The notes under the pieces are model-generated. The model saw only the letters and a program-made list of their open reading frames with translations. It was not told the origin of the DNA and did not search any database. This document shows positions 20,986 through 57,675 of a stretch of 64,000 nucleotides of DNA, in pieces; within the stretch, counting starts at the first letter, position 1; each line of letters opens with the position of its first letter. The stretch lies in assembly GCF_963921235.1 (NCBI RefSeq), contig NC_086107.1, positions 113,152,001 through 113,216,000 on the forward strand. Direction: 5' to 3'. Position numbers and translations under genes: made by a program. Source of the stretch: Mobula hypostoma (Eukaryota).

Positions 20986-21390
20986 TCATTCTATGCCCAA
21001 CCACGCCTTGCAGGCTTCAAAGTCCTGCTCGGAGCAGATGGAGTCCCAAGAGGCATCTTCGGAGGAGCAGGTGGAGTTGGGGGAGCCAGTGGTGGAGCCC
21101 CCGTCGGCCGAGGGATCCTGGTCCTGCAGGAGCACCTCCAGCTTGCGGATGTAGTCGACGGCAGAGCGCAGAGTGTCCACCTTGCTCATCCGCTTGCCCG
21201 CCCCGCACTGGGGCACGTACCGTCGCAGGTTGCTGAAGCCCAGGTTGACCAGCTTCACCCGGTTCCGCTCCCGCTCATTGCGCCGCGAGTTTGTGCCCGC
21301 TGCCTCGGCGGGTCCCTGGCGCTGCCCCCGCCGGCCATGGGCGCCGGCTCTCCCCTTCACCCCGCCCGGGGTCGCTCGCGGGTGCTCCAT
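20986..21390 (-). CDS. Achaete-scute family bHLH transcription factor, ASCL1/ASCL2 class (divergent, 134 aa from first in-frame ATG)
   Basis: bHLH RRNERERNRVKLVNLGFSNLRRYVPQCGAGKRMSKVDTLRSAVDYIRKLEVLL and an ASCL1/2-type acidic tail SPNSTCSSEDASWDSICSEQDFEACKAWLGIE. An in-frame TGA at 21457-21459 makes ATG 21390 the first usable Met. CpG-rich. Paralog identity unresolved. Confidence 0.93.
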   Translation of the reverse strand: MEHPRATPGGVKGRAGAHGRRGQRQGPAEAAGTNSRRNERERNRVKLVNLGFSNLRRYVPQCGAGKRMSKVDTLRSAVDYIRKLEVLLQDQDPSADGGSTTGSPNSTCSSEDASWDSICSEQDFEACKAWLGIE

Positions 21391-21780
21391 GTGGGGGCCC
21401 CCCCCCTCCCCGCAGGCCGCCGACACCACCACCTCAGCCGGTGAGAGGCTGCCTCCTCACCGACCGTCCTCGCCGCGCAGGCAGCTCCCTGCCGAGCGCT
21501 TCCTGGGTTGAGCTGGTGACTGATTCCACGCCCGCCTTGAGGCCAGTCAGGACCTGCCCGACTCATTCAGCTCTCCTCCTTCCCTTGCTCTTTCCCCGAA
21601 GCCCGGCAAGCACAGGTCGATTAATCAGCAACACCTCTCCCTGCAGGTACAGCCCTTCTGTTAACCCTCGCCCTGCCGCCCCTCTCTGCCTTGCTGCCGA
21701 CCGCGCTGCTCCCTCTGGGTGTGCCAGTCGTGATCGCAAACGCGCATTGCACTGTGTGTTTCGCTGCAGCCGTGATAAAA
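21000..21780. promoter_or_regulatory. CpG island covering the ASCL coding exon and its 5' region/promoter
   Basis: Very GC-rich, with many CpG dinucleotides against a CpG-depleted repeat background; extends about 400 bp upstream of the ATG on the minus strand. Confidence 0.7.
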
Positions 21781-22587
21781 TGCAACCGACCCTAAATCTC
21801 ATGAGCAGCTGCAGAAGAACAAAAGGGTCGGTTCAGTCCCCACTCTGCACACAAGTGATATCAGGAATTGTCATATGTAGTCTGGCCTCTACCCTTTGAC
21901 CTGTTTGGCATGGGTGACCCCTACCAAGGACCAAAGCACAAAGCCCTGACTCCAGCCAACATTCAGCTCAGGGTTAACAACCCTGACCGGTCAAGCAAAA
22001 CTGTTACGGAAGTAGCGATGGAGGATTGGCAGTATCCCTGAGTCTCCACCTGGAACTCGCGTGACTGCCCGAGCGACTGACGTGATGAATGGAGCTCTGA
22101 ACGCCGCCAGAGAGGGAGGGCCTTCTTGGCTGTCCTAAACGTTGGCGGCATAATGGTCAGCGGGTCCATCCAGGGGTTATATAGCAGAGGCACAGAAGCT
22201 GTCCTAGGACGTGGTGACACGCGTAGTCAAGCTTTCGTGCTTCTGCCTGGTGGGAAGGGGAGAGCGGAGGGAAGGTCCGGGCTGGAAAATGGCTGCTTTG
22301 CCTTGGTGGTGAGAAGTTCATGGAGGGGAGACTGGTTTCTGTGACGTGCTGAGCTGCGTCCGAAACTCTGCCGCTTCTTACAGTCTTGGGCAAAGCCGTG
22401 GCCATGCTCTGCGATGCACCTGGAGAGACACAGGAGGTTCTGTAGAAGCTGGAGAGGGTGTTTTCTGTGGCGCGTCTATAGGACTGGTGAGGTTCAAAGA
22501 GGACCTGCTATATTTCCCCAGCTTTCTGTGGGAGGGCACTGGTGTGTGGTGTGAACGTGAAATGAGTTGCTGTGGAAGTGGTCAAGA

Positions 22588-24302
22588 GTCAGAATCAGGT
22601 TTAATATCACTGGCGTATCTTGTGAAAGTTGTAGTCTTTGCAGCAGCAGTACAATTCAATAGAAAAAACCTGTGAATTGCGGTGAGTATATAGTGTATAC
22701 ATTACTAGTTAAATTAAATGAAAATAGAAATAAAGTAGTGAGGTAGTGTTCATGGGTTCAATGTCCATTCAGAAATCGGACGGCAGAGGGGAAGAAGCTG
22801 TTCCTGAATCACTGAGTGTGTGCCTTCAGGCTTCTGTACCTCCTTCCTGATGTAGCAGTGAGAAGAGGGCATGTTCTGGGTGATGGGGTTCCTGGAAGAT
22901 GTCCTGGATACTATGGAGGCTATATTTTTTTATTTATTCATTTACGGGATGTGGGCATCGCCAGCTGAGCCTGCATTTATTGCCTATTTTTATTAAGGGT
23001 CAATCACTGGGACATTCGACAATCGACACGGTTTCATGGTAATCAGATATTTTTGATATTGAATTCAAGTTCATCATCTGTCATGGTGGGATTCGAACTC
23101 ATGTCCCCAGCGTATAACTGTCTCTCTGGATTACTGATCCAATGGTGATTACCATTACGCCAGATCTCCCTAGTGCCCATGATGGAGCTGGCTGACAGAG
23201 TTTACAACTCTCTACAGCCTATTTCGATCCTGTGTAGTAGCCAGCACTACCCCCCACCCCTATATCAGATGGTGATGCAGCCAGTTGGAAAGCTCTCCAC
23301 ATTACATCTGTAGAAATTGGTGAGTGCCTTATAGACCAAATCTCCTCAAGCTCTTAATGAAATATAGCCACTGTCATGCAACACACATCAAAACTGCTGG
23401 TGAACGCAGCAGGCCAGGCAGCATCTCTAGGAAGAGGTACAGTCGACGTTTCGGGCCGAGACCCTTCGTCAGGACTAACCGAAGGAAGAGTTAGTAAGAG
23501 ATTTGAAAGTGGGAGGGGGAGGGGGAGATCCAAAATGATAGGAGAAGACAGGAGGGGGAGGGATGGAGCCAAGGGGAGGGACAGGTGATCGGCAAAGGGG
23601 ATATGAGAGGATCATGGGACAGGAGGCCCAGGGAGAAAGACAGTGGGAGGGGGGAAACCCAGAGGGTGGGCAAGGGGTATAGTCAGAGGGACAGAGGGAG
23701 AAAAAGGAGAGAGAGAAAAAGAATGTGTGTAAAATAAATAATGGATGGGGTACGAGGGGGAGGTGGGGCATTAGTGGAAGTTCGAGAAGTCAATGTTCAT
23801 GCCATCAGGTTGGAGGCTACCCAGACGGAATATAAGGTGTTGTTCCTCCAACCTGAGTGTGGCTTCATCTTTACAGTAGAGGAGGCCGCGGATAGACATG
23901 TCAGAATGGGAATGGGATGTGGAATTAAAATGTGTGGCCACTGGGAGATCCTGCTTTCTCTGGCGGACAGAGCGTCTGTCACTGTCATGTCTTCTTTGTA
24001 GCTGCGTCAATAGGTTAGATCCTCAGAGATATTGAGACCCAGGGACATGAAGTTACTCACTCTCTCCACTTCTGATCCCTCTATGAGGACGGGTGTGTGT
24101 TCCCTTCTCTGACCCTCTCCGAAGTCCACAATCGGTTCTTTGGTCTCACTGACGCTGCCAGGTTGTTGCGTAAGACCACTCAACCAGCTGATCTGTCTTG
24201 CTCCTGTACGCCCTCTCAACACCGTCTGAAATTCTGCCAACAATAGTTGTGCCATCGGCAAATTTATAGATGCCATTTGAGCTGTGCCTAGCCACACAGT
24301 CA
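22588..24302 (-). mobile_element. Rex1/Babar-like LINE fragment with nested Penelope and SINE pieces
   Basis: VLIEGSEVERVSNFMSLGLNISEDL near 24010-24100; 3' end near 22590. Confidence 0.75.
23378..23975 (-). mobile_element. Penelope-like element 3' fragment (EN C-terminus plus pLTR with hammerhead) nested in a Rex1-like LINE
   Basis: RSVRQRKQDLPVATHFNSTSHSHSDMSIRGLLYCKDEATLRLEEQHLIFRLGSLQPDGMNIDF; near-identical to the 27851 copy. Confidence 0.85.
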
Positions 24303-26741
24303 CAGTTCAATTGTAACAAGTGAAAATCAAAGAAATGACAGATGCTGGCAACCTGTTTCTCTCTCCACAGATGCTGGCTGGCCTGCTGAATGCTTCTCCT
24401 TTCATTTTAGTTGAGCATCGAAGCAGAATTATTTTTATTTATTTTATTTATTTAAAGATACAGTGCAAAATAGATCCTTCCCATTCAATGAGCTGCACCA
24501 CTCAGCTACCCACTTAGCCTGATTACAGGGTATATTATCACTGATGTATGTCGAGAAATTTGTTGTATCTGGCAGCAGTACAGTGGAAGACGTAAAGAAG
24601 GTGACTATAAAGAAAGAAAATAAACAAATTGTTCCAAAAAAGGGGTTCAGGATGAAGTTACTGCAAAAACATTGAGTAAATGTCTTCAGGCTCCTGTACC
24701 TCCTCCCTGATAGTAGCATTATATGCAAACATACAAGATCCTAAGGGCGTACAACAGCGTAGATGTCAAGATGTTTCCACAAGTGGGAGAGACTTGTAAT
24801 TATAAGATTAAGAGGTGTTAATGTAAACTAAGAGGCATGGGAGCTTCTTCTTGCAAAGAATGAAGAATCTCTGGAATTCTTTATCTCAGGGCGGGGTGGA
24901 GCACGACCTTGGCCACCAACCCGATTTTAGGTAACTCACTCCCCCTCTGTCCCTTTTCTCCCTCCCCGTGATCTACTCCGGTCCTCTTACGCTCCCCACC
25001 CAACCACCACCACCCTGTTTCTTTCCCCTCCTCCACTTACCACCTGCCCGTCACCCACAAACTCCTCCCACTGGGTCGCCTCCAGCTACTCTTCGCAACT
25101 GCCCAACATCCCTCTAAACCGCGAAGAGCAATGTCACTGAGCAAAGAGTGCATGGAGCATTTCCTTTAAAACCTTTCTAGCCATCTAAAGGAAAATGGAG
25201 GACTACGTAGGAAAAAAGAGTCAGATTGATCTTGAGTTGGCACAACATCGTGGTTTTATGTCAAAGTAAATTTATTATCAAAGTTCATATTACTTACTTA
25301 CCTCCTGATAACCCGCTGGCATTCTGGGCAGCAATGTAGGTCCTCCATCTCCAACTGTATAGAAGGATTCTTCGTTGTTGTTTCTGTAACAGTTTTGTTT
25401 GATCACGCGGGGTTGTCAGCCCTGAGCTGAACCCCCGAACCTGGAGGACTGGTAGACCACTCTTAGTCTGGCCTCTACCCTTTGATCTGTTTGCTATGGG
25501 TGACCCTACCAAGAGCCAAAGCACAAAGCCCTGACTCCAGCCAGCATAGCTCTCCGGGTCATTGAAGCACACAGGCCTCCAAACCCTACAACGAGTTTGT
25601 GGTCCACTTGGAGGAAAGTACCTATCTGTCACCAGATACTACCTTGAGACGCATTTCCTTGCAGGCATTTACAAGAAAATAAAGGAATACAACAGAATTC
25701 ATGAAAAACTATACATAAACAAAGACTGATAAACAACCAGTGTGCAAAAGAAGATAAATAGTGCAAATAATTAAAAATAAACAATATTGAGAACATGAGT
25801 TGTAGAGTCCTTGAAAGTGAGTCTATAGGCTGTGGAATCAGTTCAGCGTTGTGGTGAGTGAAGTTATTGACTTCCAGTTCAGGAGCCTGATGGCTGAGGG
25901 GTAACATCTGCTCCTGAACCTCCTGCCCCCAGAGCGGCTATGTACCTGTCTAAATGTTTCTGAAAAACTGTTATTGTACCCACCTCTACAGCCTCCTCGG
26001 CACCTCATTCTATACACCCACTGTCCTCTGTGTGAAAAAGTTGCCGCTAAAGATCCTTTAAAGCTCTCCCCTCTCACCTTAAACTTGACTGAGATTTTCG
26101 AGGAGGTGACGAAGGTGATGACTGAAAGAAAAGGTGAGGACATTGAGGCAGTTTAATAATGTGTTTGACAAGGTCCTTTGTGGTAGACTCACCCAGAAGA
26201 TTAAGATGTTTGGGGTCCACAGTGACTTGGCTGAATGGATTCAAAATCCAACCTCCTTTATTTGGTTCCTTGCTCCACTTTCCTTTCCTAACGGTTTCCA
26301 TCACCAACAGCTCATTGTTGGCTTCACCTACCACCTCCCGGCCTCTGTCACCAGTCTCACTCTCCCCTTATCCATTTGTTCATCACCCTTCTTCAACCAG
26401 AACCACACAACGGGAGTGATTAGTGTAACGCTTTAACAACACCAGCAACCCGGGTTCAATTCTGCCGCTTTCTGTAAGAAATCTGAATGTTCTCCCCTTG
26501 ACTGTGTCCTTTGGATCCCCCCCCCCCACATTCCAAAGACGTATGGGTTAGGAGGTTAATGGTCGCATGGGTGTAATTGGACGCCACCGGCTCATTGAGC
26601 TGGAAGGACCTGTTACCGTGCTGTATCTCTAAACAGGTAAATGGCTTGCCACCTCCGACACCACCCCTTCCCCCTACCTCTTTCTACTGGCTGACTCCCC
26701 TCTATCTTTAGGTCTAGTCGACGAAGGGTCCCAAAATATCA

Positions 26742-27545
26742 CACTGGACAAGTTTTTTCCAAAGTGTTGCTTTCTCAGAATTTTTTTTTGTTTATGATAG
26801 ACGGCTTGAAAATGAACACAAATATAATTCCAGACGACTTGTATCATGAGGGAATTTGGAGAAACAAGAAATTAACTTTTATTGAATATAACTTTTATTG
26901 AATATAATGTGTTAAATTGCATAACGGTGCTGACACTTTGCAAAAGTTCAACTAAGCTAAAAATGTTTTGTTGATGATTTTCATTTGTACTCAGTGTCTG
27001 AGGCTTCTCGTCTAAGTGTCCAACAATAGTCAGCCAGCATTGATGGATTCCAGTTGCCCTGATACCGTTTCTCCATGACCGCAATGTCCCGGTGAAACCT
27101 TTCACCATGCTCGGCACTAACAGCGCCAAGATTTTCAGGGAAGAAGTCTAAATGCGAATGCAGAAAATGAATCTTTAGTGACATGTTGCACTTCATGGCT
27201 TTGCTTACTTGAAGCACGTTGTCGTAGTTGCACGCAGTTTGGTGCTCTGTAGTTGCCAAGAAAATTTTCAGCAACATCCTTGAATGCCCTTGTACAATTT
27301 TCTTTGGTCCCACTAGAAGTTCTTCGAATTACCTGTCATTTATTACCTTTGTGAACCAACAAAAATGCCTTCCTTGACCTTGGCATCAGTTACTCTGACT
27401 TGAATTATGAATTGAGATAAATATAAACGATTTTTAGAAATGGTGCATGATAGGGAAATTTCATGATGAGTTTCATGATCGGCAGCCCAAAATCCATAAG
27501 GTAGACGCGGAAGTATTCGGGAGGCTACATCTTTGTTGTCCAGTG
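26742..27545 (-). mobile_element. Internally deleted DNA transposon, probably Chapaev3-like (second fragment ~43676-43919)
   Basis: TIRs CACTGGACAA/TTGTCCAGTG; transposase C-terminus MSLKIHFLHSHLDFFPENLGAVSAEHGERFHRDIAVMEKRYQGNWNPSMLADYCW. Confidence 0.7.
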
Positions 27546-27850
27546 ACACTTGTCCATTTCCCTGGTGCGCTGGGTCCCTGCAGTATCTTGGCTGTCACCG
27601 TGCACACTCATCCTGCTCAAGGACTGAGGCATGGTGACACCTGGTGGTCGGCAGAGGGAGTGCGGCAGCATTGCAGCAAGCTGAACCTTTGCAATCATAC
27701 ATCAAAGGTTCAAAGGTTTTAAGTAAATTTATTATCAAAGTAAATATATATCACCATATACTATCCCGAGATTCATTTTCTTGCAGGCATTCACAGTAGA
27801 ACAAAGAAATGCAACAGAATGTATGAAAAACTACACAAAGACTGACAAGC

Positions 27851-29416
27851 AACACACATAAAAGTTGCTGGTGAACGCAGCAGGCCAGGCAGCATCTCCA
27901 GGAAGAGGTACAGTCGACGTTTCGGGCCGAGACCCTTCGTCAGGACTAACTGAAGGAAGAGTGAGTAAGGGATTTGAAAGTTGGAGGGGGAGGGGGAGAT
28001 CCAAAATGATAGAAGACAGGAGGGGGAGGGATGGAGCCAAGAGCTGGACAGGTGATAGGCAAAAGGGATAAGAGAGGATCATGGGACAGGAGGTCCGGGA
28101 AGAAAGACGGGGCGGGGGGGACCCAGAGGATGGGCAAGGGGTATATTCAGAGGGACAGAGGGAGAAAAAAGGAGAGTGAGAGAAAGAATGCATGTATAAA
28201 AATAAGTAACAGATGGGGTACGAGGGGGAGGTGGGGCATTAGCAGAAGTTCGAGAAGTCAATGTTCATGCCATCAGGTTGGAGGCTACCCAGACGGAATA
28301 TAAGGTGTTGTTCTTCCAACCTGAGTGTGGCTTCATCTTTACAGTAGAGGAGGCCGTGGATAGTCATGTCAGAATGGGAATGGGATGTGGAATTAAAATA
28401 TGTGGCCACTGGGAGATCCTGCTTTCTCTGGCGGACAGAGCGTAGGTGTACAGCAAAGCGGTCTCCCAGTCTGCGTCGGGTCTCGCCAATATATAGAAGG
28501 CTACATCGGGAGCACCGGACGCAGTATATCACCCCAGCCGACTCACAGGTGAAGTGTTGCCTCACCTGGAAGGACTGTTTGGGGCCCTGAATGGTGGTAA
28601 GGGAGGAAGTGTAAGGGCATGTGTAGCACTTGTTCCGCTTACATGTAATAAGTACTTATCCGTGTAAGCGGAACAAGTGCTACACGTGCCCTTACATGCG
28701 TCCGGTGCTCCCGATGTGGCCTTTTATATATTGGCGAGACCCGACGCAGACTGGGAGACCGTCTTGCTGAACACCTACGCTCTGTCCGCCAGAGAAAGCA
28801 GGATCTCCCAGTGGCCACACATTTTAATTCCACATCCCATTCCCATTCTGACATGTCTATCCACGGTCTCCTCTATTGTAAAGATGAAGCCACACTCAGG
28901 TTGGAGGAACAACACCTTATATTCCGTCTGGGTAGCCTCCAACCTGATGGCATGAACATCGACTTCTCTAACTTCCGCTAATGCCCCACCTCCCCCTCGT
29001 ACCCCATCTGTTACTTATTTTTATACACACATTCTTTCTCTCGCTCTCCTTTTTCTCCCTCTGTCCCTCTGAATATACCTCTTGCCCATCCTCTGGGTCG
29101 CACCCCCCCCCCCTTGTCTTTCTTCCCGGACCTCCTGTCCCATGATCCTCTCGTATCCCCTTTTGCCTATCACCTGTCCAGCTCTTGGCTCCATCCCTCC
29201 CCCTCCTGTCTTCTCCGATCATTTTGGATCTCCCCCTCCCCCTCCCATTTTCAAATCTCTTACTAACTCTTCCTTCAGTTAGTCCTGACGCAGGGTCTCG
29301 GCCTGAAACGTCGACTGTACCTCTTCCTAGAGATGCTGCCTGGCCTGCTGCGTTCACCAGCAACTTTGATGTGTGTCGCTTGAATTTCCAGCATCTGCAG
29401 AATTCCTGTTGTTTGC
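27851..29416. mobile_element. Penelope-like element, head-to-head inverted duplication of GIY-YIG endonuclease region plus pLTR
   Basis: ORF 28239-28565(-) has GIY-YIG VIYCVRCSRCSLLYIGETRRRLGDRF...LQPDGMNIDF, mirrored on the plus strand from ~28663. 16-bp TSD ACAAAGACTGACAAGC at 27835-27850 and 29425-29440. Confidence 0.9.
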
Positions 29417-29644
29417 TTTTTTAAACAAAGACTGACAAGCTGCCAATGTGCAATGTGTGGGCTTGTTATCATGTTGAATCTCTAACAAAAAGAAAGACCA
29501 CCCTCTGTATGAAAATCTGCCTCTCAGGTTAAGTCATAGAGTTATAGAGCAAGGACAAAGGCCCTTCAGCCCAACTTGTCCCTGCTGACCAAGATTTCTG
29601 TCCAAGCTAGTACAGTATTTGACGCACACCCTTCTAAACCATTT

Positions 29645-31593
29645 CAGAATCGGAATCAGGTTTATTATCACCGGCATGTGATGTGAAATTTGTTAACTTA
29701 GCAGCAGCAGTTCAATGTAATACATAATCTAGAGCAGAAAAAAAATTAATAATAAATAAAATAATAATAATAAATAAATGGGTAGTGCTGAGAAAACGGA
29801 GAGTCTGCAGAGAGACGGATAGATTGGAAGAATGGGCAGAGAAGTGGCAAATGAAGTACAATGTTGGAAAGTGTATGGTTATGCACTTTGGCAGAAAAAA
29901 ATAAACAGGCAGACTATTATTTAAATGGAGAAAGAATTCTAAGTACTGAGATGCAACGGGACTTGGGAGTCCTCATACAGGATTCCCTTAAGGTTAACCT
30001 CCAGGTTGAGTCAGTAGTGAAGAAGGCGAATGCAATGTTGGCATTCATTTCTAGAGGGATAGAGTATAGGAGCAGGGATGTGATGTTGAGGCTCTATAAG
30101 GCGCTGGTGAGACCTCACTTGGAGTACTGTGGGCAGTTTTGGTCTCCTTATTTAAGAAAGGATATGCTGACGTTGGAAAGGGTACAGAGAAGATTCACTA
30201 GAATGATTCTGGGAATGAGAGGGTTAACATATGAGGAACGTTTGTCTGCTCTTGGACTGTATTCCTTGGAGTTTAGAAGAATGAGGGGAGACTTCATAGA
30301 AACATTTCGAATGTTAAAAGGCATGGACAGAGTGGATGTGGCAAAGTTGTTTCCCATGATGGGGGAGTCTAGTACGAGAGGGCATGACTTCAGGATTGAA
30401 GGGCGCCCTTTCAGAACAGAAATGCGAAAAAATTTTTTTAGTCAGACGGTGGTGAATCTATGGAATTTGTTGCCACGGGCAGCAGTGGAGGCCAAGTCAT
30501 TGGGTGTATTTAAGGCAGAGATTTATAGGTATCTGAGTAGCCAGGGCATCAAAGGTTATGGTGAGAAGGCGGGGCAGTGGGACTAAATAGGATAAAATGG
30601 ATCAGCTCATGATAAAATGGTGGAGCAGACTCGATGGGCTGAATGGCCTACTTCTGCTCCTTTGTCTTATGGTCTTATGGTCTAAATCAATTACATATAT
30701 TGAATAGAATAAAAACATGCAAAAACAGAAATACTGTATATTTAAAAAAAAGTAAGGTAGTGTCCAAAGATTCAATGTCCATTTAGGAATCAGATGGCGG
30801 AGAGGAAGAAGCTGTTCCTGAATCACTGAGTGTGTGCCTTCAGGCTTCTGTACCTCCTCCCTGATAGTAACAGTGAGAAAAGGGCATGCCCTGGGTGCTG
30901 GAGGCCCTTAATAATGGACGCTGCCTTTCTGAGACACCGCTCCTTGAAGATGTCCTGGGTACTTTGTAGGCTAGTACCCAAGATGGAGCTGACGAGATTT
31001 ACAACCTTCTGCGGCTTCTTTCGGTCCTGTGCAGTAGCCCCTCCATACCAGACAGTGATGCAGCCTGTCAGAATGCTCTCCACAGTACAACTATAGAAAT
31101 TTTTGAGTGTATTTGTTGACATGCCAAATCGCTTCAAACTCCTAACAAAGTTATAGCCACTGTCTTGCCTTCTTTATGACTACGTCAATATGTTGGGACC
31201 AAGTTAGATCCTCAGAGATCTTGACACCCACGAACTTGAAGCTGCTCACTCTCTCCACTTCTGATCCCTCTATGAGGATTGGTATGTGTTCCTTTGTCCC
31301 CTTCCTGAAGTCCACAATCAGCTCTTTTGTCTTACTGACGTTGGGTGCCAGGTTGTTGCTTTGGCACCATTCCACTACTTGGCATATCTCACTCCTGTCC
31401 ACCCTCTTGTCACCACCTGAGATTCTACCAACAATGGTTGTATCATCAGCAAATTTATAGATGGTACTTGAGCTATGCCTAGCCACACAGTCATGTGTAT
31501 ATAGAGAGTGTAGAGCAGTGGGCTAAGTACACGCCCCTGGGGTGTGCCTGTGTTGATCGTCAACGAGGAGGAGATGTTATCACCAATCCACAC
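29645..31593 (-). mobile_element. Rex1/Babar-like LINE (RT: GTPQGRVLSPLLY, YKFADDTT) with nested CR1
   Basis: ORFs 31151-31486 and 30823-31137 on the minus strand; (gattcc/gattct) tail near 29650. Confidence 0.85.
29780..30682 (+). mobile_element. Young 5'-truncated CR1-type LINE nested in a Rex1-like LINE tail
   Basis: 241-aa ORF with CR1 RT C-terminus (LYKALVRPHLEYCGQFWSPYLRKD...RRMRGDFIETF...TRGH) and a (tcttatgg)n tail. Confidence 0.9.
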
Positions 31594-32210
31594 AGATCTA
31601 TGTATCTGTTTAAATGTTTTTTTAAAAACATCCCAGTTGTACTTACCTCTGCAGTTTGCTCTGGCAGGTCGTTCCAGAGGGGTTAACATAATACTATTGC
31701 AGTGTCTTCTTGGAAGTAGGTACAGGGGTAAGTTTTTTACGCAGAGCGTGGTGAGTGCGTGGAATGGGCTGCTGGCAACGATGGTGGAGGTGGATACGAT
31801 AGGGTCTTTTAAGGGACTGGACAGGTACATGGAGCTCAGAAAAATAGAGGGCTATGGGTAACCCGAGGTAATTTCTAAGGTAAGGACATGTTCGGCACAG
31901 CTTGTATGTGCTGTAGGTTTTCTATGTTTCTGTGTGTCAGCTGACCCAGGTTCAGTGAGGAGCTCCCACCACTGTCAGTAAGGAGTTTGTACGTCCTCCC
32001 TGTGACTGCCTGGGTTTCCTCCGGGTGCTCCAGTTTTCTCCCACATTCCAAAGACATACCGGTTAGTAGGTTAATTGGTCAATTGGAATAATCGGACAAC
32101 GTGGAATCATTGGTCTAGAAGGGCCTGTTACCGCATCTATCCATGACCCTCTGTGTGAAAAAGTTGCCCTTCAGATCCACTTTTAAATCCTTCCCATCTC
32201 ACCTTCTTTA

Positions 32211-32860
32211 TGTAAGGGTTTTTTCCCCACTGACCCCCACCCCCCCACGTTGCCTAGGGTGAATTGCTGTCAACTCCACCAACAGTGCAATTGCTTTGGT
32301 GCGGATAAGGTGTGAGTTAGCCAATGATCAGCCAAGACACAAATATGAAACTATATACAAAGTGCGAGTAAAGAATCATACTTTATAGCAAATTTTTGGT
32401 GATGGGTTAGTAGAAACAACTACAAGAAAAGGCGCCACATAAGTAACTTATCAAACTTGTGCACATAATATTTTAATACATTGGAGCTCACGCCTCCGAT
32501 TCCATCCACAACATCCTTCCGAGACTCCGGCCACCCTCCGAACCCCCGAGGTCCGGTATCTGCCGCCCAGGAACTCCGTCCGTTCTCACACGTTCGTCCT
32601 CTCCGCTCGCCTCCTGAAAAAGCCCACGCTCCTCAACTCAGCACACATATACAAGATAACAGAACATGACTTCCATTGGCTAACAAATAAATACAATTTC
32701 CATTATCTTCCTCTATAACCCAAACATTGCTGTTACAGAGAACCCCTTGCTCAGCAGTTAACAGTATGAGAAGCCATTTTAATATAACACCTTAGAGAAG
32801 CCATTTTGGTAATAAGCAATCAACAGTTAACAGTCCATCTAGTATACTGAGAGCCTTACA
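32211..32860. mobile_element. Probable solo LTR
   Basis: 650 bp bounded by inverted termini TGTAAGG...CCTTACA; imperfect 4-bp TSD (TTTA/TTTC). Confidence 0.55.
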
Positions 32861-33764
32861 TTTCTGTCCTACATGTTTCACAACCACCAGCTCTGCTGTG
32901 GGATCTACACAGCCCCGCAGGCGGGTGGCACAGCACATTCGGCAATTGCGCTCGTGAATATTCATGTTCCGGCTAATTACTGTCTTATTCTGGCGGTATT
33001 TAATCCCTCCTTTTCATTTTAGTCTTGTCAACACTTGACCAAAAGCACAGCAACATTTACGGTCCCTGCTTATCCTTGTCCTTGCCCAAGGAAAGAGGAC
33101 TGTGGTTTTGATTGACGCTGGAAAGGAGTGGCGTTTGTTCAGTATTCAGATATTGCATTCAGCTGCAGTTTTGGGTTTAACTTACAGTTTGAGAGGTTTA
33201 GTTAATGGCCCTGTTGTTAGTTGCTGCCTGTTAAGCAGCTGGCGTTTAGGGCAGTAACGGGCCTGTTGGCCTAGTGTTTATTGTTTTCCTTTCCCTTTAA
33301 GTTTTGCAACAGTTCTCATTAAGGTCAGTGAACAGTCAACCTGCTTCAGTGCCCCCTCTCTCTCTCTCTCTCTCTCTACTCTTGGGCCATGTCCAAATGC
33401 TCTGACAACATAGTTGGGAATTCACCCTTCTATATTGCTGCCAGCTGTCAATAATGCCGTCAAAATCTGATGTATGAATGATTGTCTTTGATAGCTAGCA
33501 CTGTCCATGCAGGGAGAGATTCAGGGAAGCAAGATCTTCAGCCCATCTACTCTGTGCTGACCCTAAACCACCCACTTTATTCTCCCCGCGCTCTCGTCAC
33601 TTCGCCCCTGGGTTCTGCCACTCACCCACTGACTCAGAGGGTCTGCTTCCCTGCTGAGTGATTTTTTCATCTGTTCCCTTACAGTTAGTTCCCAGTCACT
33701 GGAAGATGGGTTCACATCTGTTCCCTGCCATGGTCTGGGTCAGTCCTAGTGAAATCATCCTGTC

Positions 33765-35395
33765 TAAGGGTGAATATAGAAGGTAGTAAGTTTGCAGATG
33801 ATACCAAGATTGGTGGAATTGTGGATGGTGTAGAAGGCTGGCAAAGAATACATAATGATATAGCTCAGTTGCCGATATGGGCAGAGAAATGGCAGATGCA
33901 GTTTAACCCAGTATTGTGTCTTGGTAGGGCAATTGCAAAGAGACAGTACAATGTTAATGACAAGAGTGTCGTTGAGCAGAGAGATCTTGGGATTCAAGTT
34001 CATAGCTCCTACAAAGTGGCTACACAGGTCGATAGGGTGGTTAAGATCCCTTATGGGATGCTTGCATCATTAGTCACAACATTGAGCTCAGCGTCAGTGG
34101 CTCCACAGTGGAGAGAGTGGAAAACATCAAGTTCCTTGGGGTGAAGATCTCGGACAATCTCACCTGGTCCAGGAACACCACTGGGATTGTGAAATGGGCC
34201 CAGCAGAGATTGCACTTTCTGAGGAAGCTTAAACAAGCATCACTCCCCACCAACATCTTAACTACATTCTACAGAGATGTGGTTGAGAGTGTGCTGACCT
34301 TTTGCATCACAACCTGGTACTCCAGCTGCAGTGCTGTCGACAAAAAAGCCTTGCAGAGGGTGGTTAGGGGAGCAGAGAAGGTTATTGGGGTCTCCCTACC
34401 TTCTGTCCAAGACCTCTTTCAGAGTCGATGCCTCCAGAAGACACGGTGCATCATTAAAGACCCCTCACACCCTCTCCATGAACTGTTTGTTCTTCTGCCA
34501 TCAGGCAAACGTTACAGGAGCATCAAAACTAAAACCACAAGGCTACTAAACAGCTTCCTCCCACAGGCAGTCAGACTGCTAAATAGCTGCTCTACCTGAC
34601 TCTGCTTTGGACACTTTTAACTTGCACTGGACACTTATAACTTGATTTTAACTGACATGTGGCTGTTGTGTTTTACTATTTGTTGTTATGTTTATTATTT
34701 AGTGTTGCGTTTGTTATGTTATGATTGAACTGCTCCTGGGAAACACTCTCATTCTGCCCTGCAGAGCTGATGTATGGTTAGAATGACAATAAAGTTTGTT
34801 TGAATCTTGAATCTTGAAAAAAAAAGTCAAGGGGTTATGTTGCAACTCTGTAGAACTCTAGTCAGGACCCATCTGAAGTACTGCATCCAGTTCTGGTTGC
34901 CCCACTGTAGGAAGGGTGTTGAGGCTTTGGGGAGGGTGCAGAAGAGGTTTACCAGGGTGCTGCCTGGGTTAGAGGGTATTTACTATCGTGAGAGGCTGGA
35001 CAAACTTGGGCTGTTTTCTCTGGAGCATTGGAGGCTGAGGGGAGATCTGATAGAGGTTTATACGATTATGAGAGGCAAAGTTAGAGTAGACAGACTATCT
35101 GTTTCCCAGGGTAGAAATGTAATACCAGAGGGTAGGTTCAAGGGGGATGTGAGGGGTTAGTTTTCCACTCAGAGTGCTGGCTGCCCAGAATGTACTGCCT
35201 GGTCTGGTGGTAGAGGCAAATACGTTAGAGATTTGAAAGAGGTGTTTAGATAGGCACATGGATGTGAGGAGGATGGAGGGATATGGACATTGTGTAGGAA
35301 GGAGGGATTCGTTTTTGGGTTCTTTTTGATTTAGCAAGTTTGGTACAACATTGAGGGCCGAAGGGCCTGTTTCTGTGCTGTACTCCTCTATGTTC
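33765..35395 (+). mobile_element. CR1-type LINE fragment interrupted by a younger Rex1-like LINE (~34091-34815)
   Basis: SKFADDTKIGG before the insert and LVRTHLKYCIQFW after it. The insert has an intact 163-aa ORF (KFLGVKISDNLTW...ESVLTFCITTWY...LLPSGKRYRS) and a (ttgaatc)n tail. Confidence 0.85.
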
Positions 35396-37938
35396 TTTGC
35401 TCTGTGTTCTATTTTCTATGTCTCGTGCTGGAATGAAGTAAATTCAAGTGTGAATACATTCTCTACCCGGAGAGGGGTGGGAATGTGGGGCTTCCTCCCA
35501 CAGGAGAAGGAAAAGGGACTGCTGGAACAAGGTGGGAAGTGGCTCACGTGCAGCAGATATCCTGGAACAGATGGGCTGAATGACTTGTTGCGGGGGGGGG
35601 CATCCAAATTAGATCATGTGCCAGTTGCCAGCAGTGAAGTCTGATCACACCCAGCTTCCCCTCCTCTGTGTGAATGCACGCGCGTGCCATCTGCATGTGT
35701 ACATACTAGATTAGATTAGATTATGAGGACACGTCTTCTTTTATTGTCATTTAGTAATGCATGCATTAAGAAATGATACATTATTCCTCTGGTGTGATAT
35801 CACAAAAACACAGGACAGATCAAGACTGAAAAACTAACAAAACCACATAATTATAACATATAGTTACAACAGTGCAACAATACCATAACTTGATGAAGAA
35901 CAGGCCATGAGCACAGTAAAAAAGTTCAAAGTCTCTCGAATGTCCCACATCTCACGCAGACGGGAGAAGGAAGAAAAACTCTCCCTGCCATGCCGACCAC
36001 AATCCGACTCTGAGTCGTCCGAAAACTTCGAGCCTCCAATCAGCCCTCTGACACCGAGTACTGAGCGCCATCTCTATCTGAACGATTCGACCTCAGCCTC
36101 GGTCGCCAGCAGCAGGCAAAGCCGGGGATTTTGGGGCCTTCCCTCCGGAAGATTCTCGATCGCCCAGTAACAGCGGCAGTGAACCGGTGTTTCAGAAATT
36201 TCTCTTTCACGTCTGTCTCCATCAAATCAGAATTGTACACGGCCCCTATTTAACAGAGACGATATAATTTTCACCAGAGAGCTGTGTGCGTGCATCGCGT
36301 AGCCATCTTCTCCTCCCACCCTTTTACAGTGTGTATATACATGTAATACCCACATATTCAGACACATACATACGTGTGCCTGCACATACACACACACACA
36401 CACACACACAGACATAAATACACACACTTTTGCACACACATATATTAATATGTGTACCTTACACGTATGTATTAACAGGCATATAGACTCACAAGCCACA
36501 CACATGCTATACATAGACTGAAACACATATGTACACACACATAAACACACATACACATAAGATACATAATATATTGTATATATGAACACGGGGGCTCAGA
36601 ATGTAAGAGCAGCAAAGTTGTACTCACTCACCGACTGCCCATTGCCGTCGCTGGTATTTAGGACAGCAGTGAAGGTCCTCAATCTCTGTCTGTCCTTGAC
36701 CACCTTATGGTCATGGTCTTGGCCGTGGTCAGGGCTTCCTTCGTCGTGTCAGTAGCCTCCTCTCGGTTTTCACTACTGTCAGTAATGCAAGTCCCGGGTG
36801 GAGACTCAGGAATACCGTCACACTCAGATGTAGAAGGATTCTTCATTGTTGTTTCTGTAACAGTTTTGTTTTGCCCATCAGGGTTGTTGGCCCTGAGCTG
36901 AGCCCCCGAACCTGGTGGACTGGTGGGCCACTCTTAGTCTGTCCTCTACCCTCTGACTTGTTTGCTATGGGTGACCCTTCCAAGAGCCAAAGCATAACGT
37001 CCTGACTCCAGCCAACATAGCTCTCCAGGTCACAGAGGCATGCAAGCCTCCCATCCATGACAAAGTGGTGGTCCTCCTGGAAGAGTGAAGTTGTGGGACA
37101 TCTTTATTAACCCCTAGTTAGACTGCGGCTGGAGCACTGGGGTCCAGTTGTAGCCACGCTGTAGGACAGACCCAATATGCAGTGCAGATGAGGCAGAGAA
37201 GGTTCACTATCACGGTGGACTGTTTGAGTTACAGGGTGAGACTGGAGAAACGGACTTCATTTTTCCCGGCAGTGGTAGACCCGAGGGTACGGCTGGGTGT
37301 ACGCTGTCCCAAGGCCGGCCATGGAAGGAGGTGGGGGCTGGACGTGGGGCTAGCAGCCACCTCCAGTGTGACAGAAACACCAAAGGAAGGTCCAAAGACC
37401 TCATCCCTGGGAGAGGAAGGAGAAGGTGGCTTACACCTGGGATAACATGAATGACTGGCCCAGGAGAGAGGACTCTGGTGAGCTGCTGTTGGTGGCCTTT
37501 GCCCCAGCAAGGGTGAGCGGCCAAGGTATAGATAGGGCAGATTGTAGGAAACTTTAAGAGGCAAAACGTGAGAAGCTACCTGAGGAAGATTCTTTTCACC
37601 GGGAAGTGACAGAGTACATTTGAACTGTTCTTGTACCTCCCCCTCCCCCCCAAAAAACGTCTTAATCTGGCTTCTTCCCCCTTTCCTTTCTAATCCTGAT
37701 GAAGGGCTTCGGCCTGAAATGTCAACTGTTTGTCCACTTCCATAGATGCTGGCTGACCCCCTGCGTTCCTCCAGCACTTTGAGTGTGTTGCTCTGGATTT
37801 CCAGAGTCTTCAAAAACTCTTGTGTTCAAGGTATGATAGGGTATGACTCTGATAAGCTGGGAGCAAAGGCACAAAAATGCGCGTATATTTGCAAAAAGGC
37901 ACATGCATATGCATGAACCACCGATATACATACACACA

Positions 37939-37940
<2 letters not shown>

Positions 37941-37988
<48 letters not shown>
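37941..37988 (+). repeat. (CA)24 microsatellite
   Basis: Pure CA run directly visible. Confidence 0.95.
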
Positions 37989-37991
<3 letters not shown>

Positions 37992-38119
37992 ACACACTAG
38001 AACAAAGTCCTCTAGTTAAGCTTTGATAACCCTGGCTGCAGTCACCAGCCGGGTCACTCTGGGCTGGCTGCTGTCGGAATTTTCCCTGGCTCGTGCCTGC
38101 TCCGGGATCCTGCTCGGTA

Positions 38120-38194
38120 ATGGGAAGGTGTTATGCACTGAGCTCCGCTGGGGACTGCCAGGACTCTCCCTTCACACGGATGAACCCTTTCCAG
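38120..38194 (+). CDS. igf2: IGF gene candidate coding exon 1 (leader MGRCYALSSAGDCQDSPFTRMNPFQ)
   Basis: gtaATGG Kozak context, 75 nt open, ends CAG|GTAATA in phase 0, matching the phase-0 acceptor of the next exon. Length resembles the ~21-25 aa leader exons of vertebrate IGF1 and fish IGF2. Non-repetitive sequence. Confidence 0.55.
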
Positions 38195-42937: not shown

Positions 42938-43010
<73 letters not shown>

Positions 43011-43488: not shown

Positions 43489-43636
43489 GCACCCGGTTCC
43501 ATGAAGCCATTGTGCGTCTTGTTGGTCCTCACTGCGTGCTTGAGGGTTTCGAGCTCCCGGACAGCGGAGACCCTGTGTGGGGGAGACCTGGTGGATACTC
43601 TGCAGTTCATCTGTGCGGACAGAGGCTTTTACTTTG
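43489..43636 (+). CDS. igf2: IGF coding exon 2: signal peptide plus B domain
   Basis: ttccgtccctag|GCA acceptor; [49 protein letters not shown]; phase-1 donor G|GTGAGA. Missing from the ORF track. Confidence 0.95.
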
Positions 43637-44194
43637 GTGAGAACCCTTCCCCTCCCTCCCTGTGTTTTTAACTATCCCAAGTTCTTTGAATTACCAGTCA
43701 TTGATGACCTGTTCAATTTGTGGAGCAACAAAAAATGCCTTCCTTAATCTTGGCACCAGTTATTCTGACTTGATTTATGAATTGAAATAACAAATGTAGG
43801 CAATTTCAAAAACAGGCCTTGTGATAGGGAAATTTCATGGTGATTTTCATGACCAGCAGCCCAAAATCAGTAAGATACACACATAAGTACCCAGGAAGCA
43901 AAATCCTTATCATCCAGTGTTAATGAAGAGTGTACCACTCTGGTGGGGATGGGGGTGGGGGGAGTCACGTGAGTTCCTATTGGTTTTATGGAACTCAATG
44001 GGACGCTCCCTAACGGATTGATTATGGAAGGAAGAATGAAAGGCATTTCATGGCTTATTCTGGTCATTTTTTTTTACTTTGCATAATGTTTATTTTGATA
44101 AATAAAAGGATCCAAAATACTAGGAGAAACATCCCTCTTTGTCCCCTTAGCCTCACATCATTTCTCTGCAAGTCAAAACATTTCTCTTCCCTAA

Positions 44195-53092: not shown

Positions 53093-54030
53093 TATAACCA
53101 TATAACAATTACAGCACGGAAACAGGCCATCTCAGCCCTTCTAGTCCATGCCGAACTCTTACTCTCACCTAGTCCCACCCACCTGCACTCAGCCCATAAC
53201 CCTCCATTCCCTTCCTGTCCATCTATCTATCCAATTTAACTGTAAATGACAACATCGAACCTGCCTCAACCACTTCTGCTGGAAGCTCGTTCCACACAGC
53301 TACCACTCTCTGAGTAAAGAAGTTCCCCCTCATGTTACCTCTGAACTTTTGTCCTTTAACTCTCAACTCATGTCCTCTTGTTTGAATCTCCCCCACTCTC
53401 AATGGAAAAAGCCTATCCACGTCAACTCTATCTATCCCCCTCATAATTTTAAATACCTCTATCAAGTCCCCCCTCAATTTCTACGCTCCAAAGAATAAAG
53501 ACCCAACGTGTTCAACCTTTCTCTGTAACCTAGGAGATGAAACCCAGGTAACATTCTAGTAAATCTTCTCTGTACTCTCTCAATTTTGTTGACATTTTTC
53601 CTATAATTCAGTGACCAGACCTGTACACAATACTCCAAATTTGGCTTTACCAGTGCCTTGTACAATTTTAACATTACATCCCAACTCCTCTACTCAATGC
53701 TCTGATTAATAAAGGCCAGTATACCAAAAGCTTTCTCATCACCCTATCCACATGAGATTCCACCTTCAAGGAACTATGCACTATTATTCCTAGATCCCTT
53801 TGTTCTACTGCATTCTTCAATGCCCTACCATTTACCATGTATGTCCTACTTTGCTTAGTCCTACCAAAATGTAGTACCTCACATTTATCAGCATTAAACT
53901 CCATCTGCCATCTTTCAGCCCACTCTTCTAACTGGCCTAAATCTCTCTGCAAGCTTTGAAAACCTACTTCATTATCCACAACTCCACCTATCTCAGTATC
54001 ATCTGCATATTTACTAATCCAATTTACCAT
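53093..54030 (-). mobile_element. CR1-type LINE 3' fragment
   Basis: WISKYADDTEIGG...LYKALVKPNLEYCVQVW...MRGDLIEVFKIM...TRGH; (ttatatgg)n tail. Confidence 0.9.
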
Positions 54031-54067
54031 CTCCATCCCTCTACACTGTTCCATTGAATGCAGAGTC

Positions 54068-54960
54068 TGAATGGATCAGTAAATATGCAGATGACACTGA
54101 GGTTAGGGGCGAGGAAGACTATCATGGCTTGCAGCAGGATCTGGACCTGTTGGATAAATGGCAGATGAAATTTAATGCCGACAGACGCAAGGTCTTGCAC
54201 TTTGGTGGGACCAGCCAGGGTAAGTCTTATACAGTGAGTGGTGGGGCACTGAGAAGTGCGGTAGATCAAAGGGAACTGGGAATACAGGTTTATAATTCAT
54301 TGAAAGTGGTGTCACAGGTAGATAGGGCCATTGAGAAAGCTTTTGGCATGTTGGCCTTCATAAATCAATATATTGAGTACAGGAGATGGGATATTATGTT
54401 GAATTGTGTGAGACATTGGTGAGGCCGAGTTTGCAGTATTGTGTGTGTCTTTGGTCACCTACCTACAGGAAAGATGTAAATAAGGTTGAAAGAGTTCAGA
54501 GAAAATCTACAAGGATGTTGATGCATCTGTATGACCTGGGTTACATGGAAAGATTGAATAGGTTAGGAATTTATTCCTTGGGATGTAGAGATTGAGAGAT
54601 TTGATAGAGGTATACAAAATTATGAGGGGTATAGATGGGGTAAATGCAAGCAGGCTTTTTCCACTGAGGTTGGGTGGGATGACAATGAGAGGTCATGGGT
54701 TAAGAGTGAAAGGTGAAAGTTTTAAGCGGAACGTGAGGGGAAACTTCTTCGCTCAGAGGGTCATGAGCTGCCGGTGCAGGTGGTGCAGGCGAGCTCTATT
54801 TCAATGTTTAAGAGAAGTTTGGGTAGGTACATGGGTGGTTGAGGTAGGGAGGACCATGGTCCCAGTGCAGGTCAATGGGAGTAGGCAGTTTAAATGGTTT
54901 GGCATTGACTAGATGGCCCAAAGGGCCTGATTCTGTGCTGTAGTTTTCTATGACTCTATA
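54068..54960 (+). mobile_element. CR1-type LINE 3' fragment, inverted relative to its neighbour
   Basis: WISKYADDTEV...LVRPSLQYCV...DLIEVYKIMRG; (tatgactc)n tail. Confidence 0.88.
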
Positions 54961-55187
54961 CTTTAGAGAACAGGGACATTGTTAGATACCGAGCTAGGCA
55001 GCAGGGATTATATTTATTATTATCACTGATATACTGGTATGCCATGAAATTTGTTGTTTTGCTGCATCAGTACAGTGCAATACCAGAATATACTGTAAGT
55101 GATCGGGAACATACTCAAGGCAGGGAGGCCGCGCGTCCTGCCACGTACTTCTCTGCTGCTTAACGCCTCCGATTTCCTGGTTGCCAG

Positions 55188-55348
55188 TCAGCAAGATGGG
55201 CCGCCGGAGCCGGCAGAACCGAGGCATTGTGGAGGAGTGCTGCTTCCGTAGCTGTGACCTCCTGATCCTGGAGACCTACTGCGCCACCCCGCAAGATGGC
55301 GCCCACACCCCGCCACCCACAGCACCGCACCGACCACTGCTGCACCGG
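55188..55348 (+). CDS. igf2: IGF coding exon 3: C, A, D domains and start of E peptide
   Basis: ttgccag|TC phase-1 acceptor; (V)[53 protein letters not shown]; donor CGG|GTAAGG in phase 0. From memory this is very close to the published spiny dogfish IGF-II C/A domains. Confidence 0.95.
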
Positions 55349-55477
55349 GTAAGGCTCGTGTCGTCCCCTCCTCCCGCGTCGGTGGAGACGTCTCCTTCCT
55401 CGTTGGCGCTGAACGATAACTCTGACGTAGGACGGGTGAGATCACCTCTGCTCCATCCGCTAAGAGTTGGGTTTCCC

Positions 55478-56017
55478 TAAGTGGCCAACCATCCTAATTC
55501 CTACCCGCATTTCTGTTCTGACATGTCGATCCACGGCCTCCTCTTGTGCCACCATGGGGCCACCCTCAGGGTCGAGGAGCGACACCTTATGCTCCATCTG
55601 GGTACCCTCCAAACTGATGGCATAAATATTGACTTCTCCTTCCGGTGAACAAATCTCCCCCCCTTCCCACTCGGACCTTTCACTTCCTCTGTCCTGCCAA
55701 TTACTTTCTGCTGGATTCCCTCCTCCTTCCCTTACTCCCACGGTCCACTCTCCTCTCCTCTCAGATTCTTTCTTCTCCGGCCCTTGACCTTTCCTGCCCA
55801 CCTTGCTTCACCCATCACCTTCCAGCTAGTCTCCTTCCCCTCCCCCCTCCTTTATATTCTGGCATCTTCCCTCTTACTTCTCAGTCCTGAAGAAGGTCTC
55901 GGCCCGAGACATCGACTGTTTACTCTTTTCTATAGACGCTGCCTGATCTGCTGAGTTCCTCCAGCATTTTGTGCGTGTTGCTTTGCATTTCCAGCATCTG
56001 CAGACTTTCTTGTGTGT
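55478..56017 (+). mobile_element. Penelope-like 3' fragment in IGF intron 3
   Basis: Degenerate EN C-terminus followed by pyrimidine-rich pLTR with a mutated hammerhead (GAGAC for GAAAC). Confidence 0.75.
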
Positions 56018-56821
56018 ATGATATTTACTGCCCATAACTAACCACACTTGAGAAGCCAACGGCGAACAACTTTTCCACACATAATTAGGTCTGGTGCATA
56101 AAACCGTAAGACGCAGGAGCAGAATTAGGCCATTCGGCCCATCGAGTGTGTTCTGTCATTCCATCATGGCTGATTTATTATCCCTCTCAACCCCATCTCC
56201 TGCCTCCTCCCCGTAACCTTGGACACCCTTACTAATCAAGATCCCATTAACCTCTGCTTTAAATATTCTCAATGACTTGGTCTCCACAGCCATCTGTGGC
56301 AATGAATTCCACAGATTCACCATCCTTTGGCTAAACAAAATTCCTACTAATCAACATGCACAAAATGCTGGAGGAACTCAGCAGCCAGGCAGCACCTATG
56401 GAAAAGAGTCTTGTGACACCATGGATCTGCGCCTGGAAAGTCTTCACTCTCCAGGGCGCAGGCCTGGGCAAGGTTGTATGGAAGACCAGCAGTTGCCCAT
56501 GCTGCAAGTCTCCCCTCTCCATGACACCGATGTTGTCCAAGGGAAGGGCATTAGGATCCATACAGCTTGGCACCAGTGTCGTCGCAGAGCAATGTGTGAT
56601 TAAGTGCCTTGCTCAAGGACACAACATGCTGCCTCGGCTGGGGCTCGAACTCACGAACTTCAGGTTGCTAGTCCAATGCCTTAACCACTTGGCCACGTGC
56701 CCACGCTAAGAATAAACAGTCAACATTTTGGGCCGAGACCCTTTATCAGGACTGGAAAGGAGGAGCAGAAGTCAGAGTACACTCGATGGGCCAAATGGAC
56801 TAATTGTGGTCCTATATATTA

Positions 56822-57190
56822 TGGGCGGCAGGGTGGAGAAACGTCTCTACCAAAGGAGGTGTAAGGTGCTCCTTCCCCCCGCTAGCCGGTAGGTCACCCT
56901 GGGGCGAGGTGTAGCACCTGCTTTTCCATGTCCTCCCGATCAGGGTCATGTGAAGCCAAAGGGAGCAGGTGGTGGATGGTCACATGAGCAGATGGTGCAG
57001 ATCACAAGTCCTGGTTATGCGACCCACTGACACCGGGCAGACAGTCTTTGAAAGGTATTGATAATGGCTGGGGTCACCCGTCTAGTAAAGACACTGCCCA
57101 GAAGAAGGCAATGGCAAACCACTTCAGTAGAAAAATTTGCCAAGAACAATCATAGTCATGGGAAGACCAACATTATATGACACGACACTT
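56822..57190 (+). mobile_element. Non-autonomous ~370-bp retroposon with RTE/BovA-like tail (interrupted copies at ~671-1375 and ~8508-9028)
   Basis: Three copies share the head GGGYGGCAGGGTGGAGA...TCTC(T/C)ACCAAAGGAGG and the tail GAAGAAGGC(A/G)ATGGCAAACCACTTC. Confidence 0.65.
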
Positions 57191-57438
57191 AATGAACTAA
57201 CATATATCTTCTATACATAGAGTGATTGTACGTAAACACTAGGCTGTACGTAAGGTGAGTTTGTGGGTGGAGGTGTTGATCAGCCTTACTGTTTTTGAGT
57301 CTGGTGGTCCTGGCCTGGATGCTACATAGCTGGTGTTTACGCCACACATCCCAAAGTTTGAGTGTCTGAAGGGTAAACTCAATGCCCAGCCTCCAGAATT
57401 AACAGTGCATCCGTTCTGTTTCTCCCCTTGTCAAACAG

Positions 57439-57675
57439 ATCATGGGGAAGCGGTCTCTCGACGTTGAACGGGAGGATTCGCCGGGTCAGCCCGAGAACCG
57501 CTGGAGCCACACCAGTCTCGTCTCCGGAGCCCAGCACAACGTCCGCGATGGCCAGAGAGGGGAGAAGGCGCGGCCGTCCCAGTCCTCGCCCCAGCGCTGG
57601 ATGCGGTCAGGCAGAGTGCTGCACCCTTTGCGCAGCGACCTGCTCTCCCCCCTCCGACAGACTAAGCCATTCTGA
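57439..57675 (+). CDS. igf2: IGF candidate terminal coding exon (E peptide)
   Basis: Pyrimidine tract tctgtttctccccttgtcaaacag|ATC, phase 0; IMGKRSLDVERED...LRQTKPF*; CpG-rich unique sequence. Exons total 75+148+161+237 = 621 nt, 206 aa plus stop. Confidence 0.65.
   Translation: MMGKRSLDVEREDSPGQPENRWSHTSLVSGAQHNVRDGQRGEKARPSQSSPQRWMRSGRVLHPLRSDLLSPLRQTKPF

Follow-up and report, generated by a model that had tools for sequence, protein, structure and literature searches.

An ASCL-IGF gene pair of Mobula hypostoma as a probable fourth copy of the vertebrate ASCL-hydroxylase-insulin-IGF block

In the human genome, ASCL2, TH, INS and IGF2 are co-oriented neighbours, and ASCL1 is divergent from PAH and IGF1, with PAH in between. 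We analysed a window of 64,000 nucleotides from Mobula hypostoma (NCBI RefSeq assembly GCF_963921235.1, contig NC_086107.1, positions 113,152,001 to 113,216,000 of the forward strand) that contains a divergent pair of this kind, an ASCL gene on the minus strand and an insulin-like growth factor (IGF) gene on the plus strand. The first-pass annotation of this window had placed their start codons about 16.7 kb apart, and the distance is indeed 16,730 bp. Several published accounts bear on such a locus. According to the accessible passages of PMC6591164, cartilaginous fishes keep a single insulin gene in its usual th-ins-igf2 neighbourhood, between th and igf2. Table S3 of a 2025 study (PMC11925022) lists four IGFs each for M. 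hypostoma and the whale shark, among them the protein of the window as "IGFII-like"; it also lists a separate IGFII for M. hypostoma, and IGFI and IGFII for the coelacanth. The available passages of that study interpret teleost IGFIII as a duplicate of IGFI, take two of the IGFs to have disappeared from most bony vertebrates, and mention no synteny. Kiss3, of the human 1/11/12/19 tetra-paralogon, is described in the available part of PMC3530029 as a copy from the two early vertebrate genome duplications (2R) that amniotes and ray-finned fishes have lost but that a chondrichthyan, the coelacanth and Xenopus retain. Both the four chondrichthyan IGFs (PMC11925022) and the 1/11/12/19 paralogon (PMC3530029) are already in print.

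We consider it highly probable that the window pair is the fourth 2R copy of an ASCL-hydroxylase-insulin-IGF block, with the same pair present in amphibians and its IGF in the coelacanth. The ancestral block would have been copied by the two genome duplications. The window pair would be the likely sister of ASCL2-TH-INS-IGF2, on a chromosome-19-type (19q13-type) paralogon, and the intervening genes (TH and INS) would probably have been deleted after the duplication. In amphibians the pair likely persists as IGF-III with a neighbouring short ASCL, and in the coelacanth its IGF likely persists as IGF III. An origin within the 1/11/12/19 paralogon is favoured because Kiss3, although a member of another gene family, shows the same pattern of retention of a 2R copy. 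A broader account, which we think is probable, holds that none of the four 2R copies of IGF has been lost from sharks, rays or the coelacanth, and that the window contains a stripped sister of ASCL2-TH-INS-IGF2 that is still coupled to a third proneural ASCL (presumably Xash3 in frogs). On that account the "shark IGF-II" would be the window gene, Xenopus igf3 would be the orthologue of the window gene and not of teleost igf3, teleost igf3 would be an ancient gnathostome gene and not an igf1 duplicate, and the product in stingrays and devil rays would be C-terminally extended and amidated.

Four classes of IGF can be told apart in elasmobranchs (IGF1, IGF2, an igf3-type and the window-type), and orthologues of the window-type gene span sharks and rays, including the Squalus "IGF-II" (Q91443). 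In Narcine, a canonical IGF2 with an IGF2_C domain is located on a 494 Mb sequence, the igf3-type gene on one of 258 Mb and the window-type gene on one of 95 Mb. The IGF1 gene of Cetorhinus is on a sequence of the same size as that of ascl1a (80.6 Mb), and its window-type gene is on a 26.2 Mb sequence. Window-type proteins lack IGF2_C as well as the xERD and QRLRR motifs, all of which are present in the Narcine IGF2 (P0415). As judged from sequence, the window IGF is distinct from IGF1, IGF2 and the teleost-type igf3, and represents a fourth IGF.

The mature peptide of the window IGF agrees with orang-utan IGF2 at 39 of 45 B- and A-domain residues and with a mammal-type IGF1 at 35 of 45, and its best match in PDB is human IGF-II (E 1e-30). 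In a mixture-model tree, which kept 33 of the 46 rows, it stands beside IGF2 (together with IGF-III) at 82/92. Because the window IGF looks closer to IGF2 than to IGF1, the orientation of the pair is a poor guide to its identity. The first-pass annotation had raised the possibility of an IGF2 locus uncoupled from INS and TH, which would also be in line with the usual database label, since orthologues are named IGF-II in several records (Squalus Q91443 among them) and identity to IGF2 in the mature peptide is high. This explanation is contradicted by the separate IGF2 of Narcine, with the IGF2_C domain and E-peptide motifs that the window protein lacks, by the separate IGFII listed for M. hypostoma in the accessible part of PMC11925022, and by a separate ASCL2-type protein in Cetorhinus; that a true IGF2 locus moved away from TH and INS is therefore very improbable. 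Vertebrate IGF2 is the closest named paralogue in the mature peptide, the human C domain is of equal length, and IGF2 would be the likely 2R sister, but the window gene has neither IGF2_C nor adjoining TH and INS, and the true IGF2 is found elsewhere in rays.

The Squalus acanthias "IGF-II" (P0132) shares 42 of 45 B- and A-domain residues, the C domain, the start of the E peptide and the clade with the window IGF, but keeps an Arg after the D domain that has been lost from the window protein. It is presumably also the shark "IGF-2" record that served as IGF-2 in earlier work. By this analysis the Squalus protein is not the IGF2 orthologue. A shark record is used as IGF-2 in the available sections of PMC2738950.

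The igf3-type genes form a single clade of chondrichthyans (including a chimaera), coelacanth, lungfish, bichir, gar and teleosts (99/95 and 98/92); the teleost sequences in it are unnamed and were labelled by inference. The elasmobranch member is usually labelled IGF-I. Members from a shark, a skate, a chimaera, the coelacanth, a lungfish and a bichir carry IGF-I or IGF-II labels (P0286, P0285, P0173, P0176, and P0197). Because these mislabelled shark-to-bichir proteins are orthologues of gar and teleost igf3, igf3 is not specific to teleosts. The igf3-type and window-type genes are on different sequences in seven of seven species for which the sizes of both sequences were available (Leucoraja, Narcine, Heterodontus, Heptranchias, Mustelus, Rhinoraja, and Pristis). 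Orthology of the window IGF to the teleost gonadal igf3 is scarcely credible: an approximately unbiased (AU) test does not reject the window-type genes with the igf3-type (p 0.27), but it is the separate elasmobranch gene that groups with gar and teleost igf3 at 99/95. Teleost gonadal igf3 (igf1b) resembles the window IGF in being another non-mammalian IGF paralogue, whereas its shark and ray orthologue is a different gene, on another sequence, with an 18-residue C domain. The earlier designation of the window as an igf3-type locus is thus likely to apply only in the amphibian sense of the name, and fails for the teleost one.

Orthology of the window-type genes to amphibian and coelacanth IGF-III is likely but not proven. 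The two sets group at 93/89 in one tree and at 83/88 in the mixture-model tree, and both have a short C domain of 12 residues. They share Ile residues in two motifs, QFIC (13 of 15 window-type and 12 of 15 IGF-III rows) and xILE (14 of 15 and 12 of 15), neither of which occurs in any of the 26 IGF1, IGF2 and igf3-type rows. Xenopus igf3 (NP_001082137) and coelacanth IGF III (XP_005991005) thus resemble the window IGF in these residues, in the short C domain and as its sister group in both trees, and the amphibian gene is also linked to a short ASCL. They differ in that only 29-33 of the 45 B- and A-domain residues agree, in an extra A-domain Cys, and in lacking the G-K-R site. The extra cysteine (CCFCxC) is found in amphibian and coelacanth IGF-III (P0178, P0333, and others), most of which have almost no E peptide. 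In the coelacanth, IGF III, which groups with its amphibian counterparts at 94/90, coexists with an igf3-type gene. Since these are present besides the listed IGFI and IGFII, the coelacanth has four IGFs.

The comparisons support the ASCL gene of the window as a third class-A paralogue, distinct from ASCL1 and ASCL2. After its own protein, its eight best matches are short elasmobranch proteins with 52-70% identity (the short ASCL orthologue rows are P0002-P0009 and P0304). Three class-A ASCL proteins are encoded in the basking shark (Cetorhinus), each on a sequence of its own (26, 81, and 145 Mb); those on the 81 and 145 Mb sequences are ASCL1-type and ASCL2-type according to tree and motif. 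The SPELLRC and EHDA motifs are absent from all 19 short forms and present in all 7 ASCL1/2 rows; the window ASCL has the RRNERERNR basic region and a degenerate form of the C-terminal acidic-Trp motif. In a tree of 31 rows the short forms of elasmobranchs and amphibians are united at 100/98, and this split has 99/98 in a mixture-model tree of 21 rows with the spider outgroup left out (a 50-row set gave a quick tree only, and the smaller sets were used). The AU test rejects the elasmobranch short ASCL with ASCL2 (p 0.0005) and with ASCL1 (p 0.024). The amphibian short proteins, which we take to be Xash3 and which carry "ASCL1-like" or "ASCL2-like" labels, resemble the window ASCL as short class-A proteins of the same clade with a VPQ loop and without SPELLRC or EHDA, but have different C-terminal tails. 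No orthology study on Xash3 or Cash4 was found in the literature searched.

The two genes were counted as linked where their sequences have identical size, as a proxy for a single chromosome. By this measure the short ASCL and the window-type IGF are linked in all eight other elasmobranchs with matches to both (Hemitrygon, Pristis, Leucoraja, Rhinoraja, Narcine, Cetorhinus, Mustelus, and Heptranchias). Only the ASCL was matched in Carcharodon, and only the IGF in Chiloscyllium, Heterodontus, Squalus, and Pristiophorus. A short ASCL and IGF-III are likewise linked in eight of nine amphibians (Lissotriton, Pleurodeles, Bombina, Hyla, Anomaloglossus, Eleutherodactylus, Dendrobates, and Phyllobates), and the locus tags of the Pleurodeles pair (NDU88_010215 and NDU88_010219) are four apart. 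RefSeq accession numbers proved uninformative as a measure of distance, since the gaps between them run to hundreds or thousands; for this purpose the locus tags of Pleurodeles alone could be used. The three ASCL proteins of Cetorhinus and the linkage of the pair across elasmobranchs support the other proposal of the first-pass annotation, a separate whole-genome-duplication copy that retains a third class-A ASCL.

If the ASCL2-IGF2 region had instead undergone a segmental duplication early in the history of cartilaginous fishes, followed by loss of TH and INS and divergence, this would fit the particular likeness of the window IGF to IGF2 (in the B and A domains and in the best PDB match), the fact that 10 of 15 orthologues have Arg at the IGF2 position that follows the last Cys, and the AU test, which does not reject the window-type genes with IGF2. 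In addition, no chimaera orthologue was retrieved. Nevertheless, the AU test rejects the elasmobranch short ASCL with ASCL2, amphibians have a matching linked pair, and likeness to IGF2 is equally expected of a 2R sister. We regard such a duplication as quite unlikely.

Several observations weigh against a fourth 2R copy shared with amphibians. The IGF alignment has only about 100 columns, and neither of the nodes that join window-type genes and IGF-III was starred. None of the four IGF alternatives is rejected by the AU test, that is, window-type genes with IGF2 (p 0.36), with the igf3-type (p 0.27) or with IGF1 (p 0.24), and IGF-III with the igf3-type (p 0.38). The two groups of short ASCL sit on long branches, and the tree program issued a warning that joins may be false, so their grouping may be inflated; in the 21-row tree the elasmobranch short ASCL alone had no well-supported attachment. 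The proxy for linkage is equality of sequence size, the chromosomes are large, and the species are related and hence not independent. Ascaphus is the unmatched amphibian (92 Mb versus 141 Mb), possibly because two different assemblies are involved, and a coelacanth short ASCL was not among the matches listed. No flanking gene was recognised in the window (248 of 585 flank frames scanned), so the chromosome-19-type placement is putative. A neighbour-joining tree in the available part of PMC5176323 places Xenopus igf3 with teleost igf3. The last point, the AU result for IGF-III with the igf3-type, and long-branch warnings on both the IGF and the ASCL trees would suit a history in which sharks and rays keep the fourth 2R copy but the amphibian IGF-III and short ASCL belong to the teleost igf3 paralogon and are drawn to the window genes in trees only by fast evolution; no igf3-type amphibian sequence was among the matches listed. 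Such a history is unlikely, since the coelacanth has an igf3-type gene in addition to an IGF III whose place in the trees is with the amphibian genes, the Ile residues and the 12-residue C domain are common to window-type and IGF-III proteins, and a short ASCL of one kind is linked to each of the two IGFs.

The interval between the two genes is largely as it had first been described, with transposon fragments and unique patches. Of the interval at 21391-38120, 51% is multi-copy within the window, and its Pfam matches are retroelement-type (GIY-YIG, RVT_1, and ALKBH8_N), which we infer to be transposon pieces. Two adjacent, near-identical GIY-YIG (Penelope-type) fragments are located at 28239-28981, and a frame at 26981-27328 resembles, by eye, part of a DNA transposon. 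Of the 454 stop-to-stop frames of at least 25 amino acids that overlap the interval, 245 contain 60 or more single-copy bases, and these were the ones scanned. None of the 245 matches Biopterin_H or Insulin, which agrees with the earlier claim that no hydroxylase or insulin exon lies between the genes; as controls the scan recovered IGF exons 2 and 3, and it had no exon-sized hydroxylase control. None of the six reading frames of the window contains hydroxylase motifs or a second insulin-type cysteine pattern. The 248 of 585 flank frames that were scanned gave no credible Pfam match, Insulin and Biopterin_H included, and no recognisable gene. Matches to Calcipressin, SCRG1, DUF3915, and YidD were below curated cut-offs and were treated as chance.

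If the proposed origin is true, the IGF family would comprise four whole-genome-duplication copies with different losses, and not two genes plus a teleost extra. Three labels would have to be corrected: the shark "IGF-II", the frog and fish "igf3", and the database "ASCL1-like" or "ASCL2-like" for a third proneural gene. It would also no longer be justified to pool results on igf3 from frogs with those on igf3 from fish. Linkage of ASCL and IGF from shark to newt without the intervening genes makes shared regulation testable in catshark, skate, and Xenopus embryos. Neither the link to a third ASCL, nor the orthology with IGF-III of amphibians and the coelacanth, nor the division of "igf3" into two genes was found in the literature searched, with subscription papers outside its scope. 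A 2021 review of Igf3 in Biol Reprod may cover part of these points. All three are absent from the accessible portions of PMC12702675, PMC12318234, PMC4992253, PMC9010856, PMC2738950, PMC4760308, PMC4362833, and PMC12796670. A possible link to sex chromosomes was dropped; in the available part of PMC12318234, igf3 appears only among the references.

Both genes are intact, and their models are listed in Table 1. The IGF precursor has 206 amino acids in four coding exons, all introns are GT..AG, and the product has a signal-B-C-A-D-E layout with the six conserved cysteines. Exon 3 is a 100% match to a RefSeq protein that, like the precursor, has 206 residues (XP_062919477.1; P0121), which is labelled "insulin-like growth factor I [Mobula hypostoma]". 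In a single 1279-nt contig from run X5, exon 2 is covered exactly, preceded by the 3' end of exon 1 and followed by the first part of exon 3; the match is taken up again at the exon 4 acceptor, with the expected offset. The IGF is therefore spliced as modelled in at least one sample, that of X5, which is presumed to be RNA, no run being on record as such. A DNA run (X4) reads through the IGF intron, unlike the X5 contig. About 100 extra letters 5' of exon 1 in the transcript contig are unmapped, and at the other end the contig runs on to at least 58029. No cover of IGF exons was present in runs X13, X14, and X15, which carries no information on expression. Upstream of the ASCL start codon there is an in-frame stop close by, with no further Met in between. 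The GC-rich stretch around this gene is likely its promoter island.

Table 1 Features of the ASCL-IGF locus in the M. hypostoma window (bHLH, basic helix-loop-helix domain; ORF, open reading frame; aa, amino acids)
Feature	Position	Strand	Evidence or remark
ASCL gene, short class-A, single coding exon, 134 aa	21390->20986	minus	ORF; Pfam HLH E 8e-17
ASCL bHLH	about 21136-21285	minus	within putative third ASCL1/2-type paralogue
GC-/CpG-rich single-copy stretch around ASCL	20472..21877		57% GC, 69 CpG
ASCL-IGF intergenic interval	21391..38119		about half multi-copy repeat
IGF coding exon 1, leader start	38120..38194	plus	3' end joined to exon 2 in X5 contig
IGF exon 2, predicted signal peptide and B domain	43489..43636	plus	Pfam Insulin E 1.3e-5
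IGF exon 3, C, A and D domains and start of E peptide	55188..55348	plus	Pfam Insulin E 3.2e-8
IGF exon 4, coding part, E peptide opening with conserved G-K-R site	57439..57675	plus	

The IGF precursor would be a secreted protein, processed to a peptide like IGF2. Since the six cysteines and the receptor-contact residues are kept, this peptide is predicted to signal through IGF1R or the insulin receptor. At the position that we take to be the processing site of human IGF2, 10 of 15 orthologues keep an Arg, and His is present in four Mobula, Hemitrygon, and Hypanus proteins. A G-K-R-S sequence 17 residues beyond this position (57439-57460) is found in 13 of the 15. Because the Arg after the D domain (55280-55348) is lost and G-K-R is conserved, the cut in stingrays and devil rays would likely fall at G-K-R, giving a longer and possibly amidated peptide; an amidated peptide derived from the E region is another possible product. 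The contact residues considered here are those of the A domain named in the available text of PMC12796670. The ASCL protein keeps the basic region and both helices of an intact bHLH, and would, like others of its family, bind E-boxes with an E-protein partner, likely in early neural tissue.

The Hemitrygon ASCL model (P0304) begins 70 residues further upstream than that of the window, and the corresponding frame of the window is closed by a stop. In Pristis isoform X1 and Narcine isoform X3 of the IGF, read-through of the exon 2 donor adds a related C-domain stretch of 26-33 residues; in the equivalent part of the window (43637-43670) the frame stops after 11 codons. On the 3' side of the IGF stop codon, about four head-to-tail copies of a 31-base unit are present at 57970-58095, partly under cover of the X5 contig.

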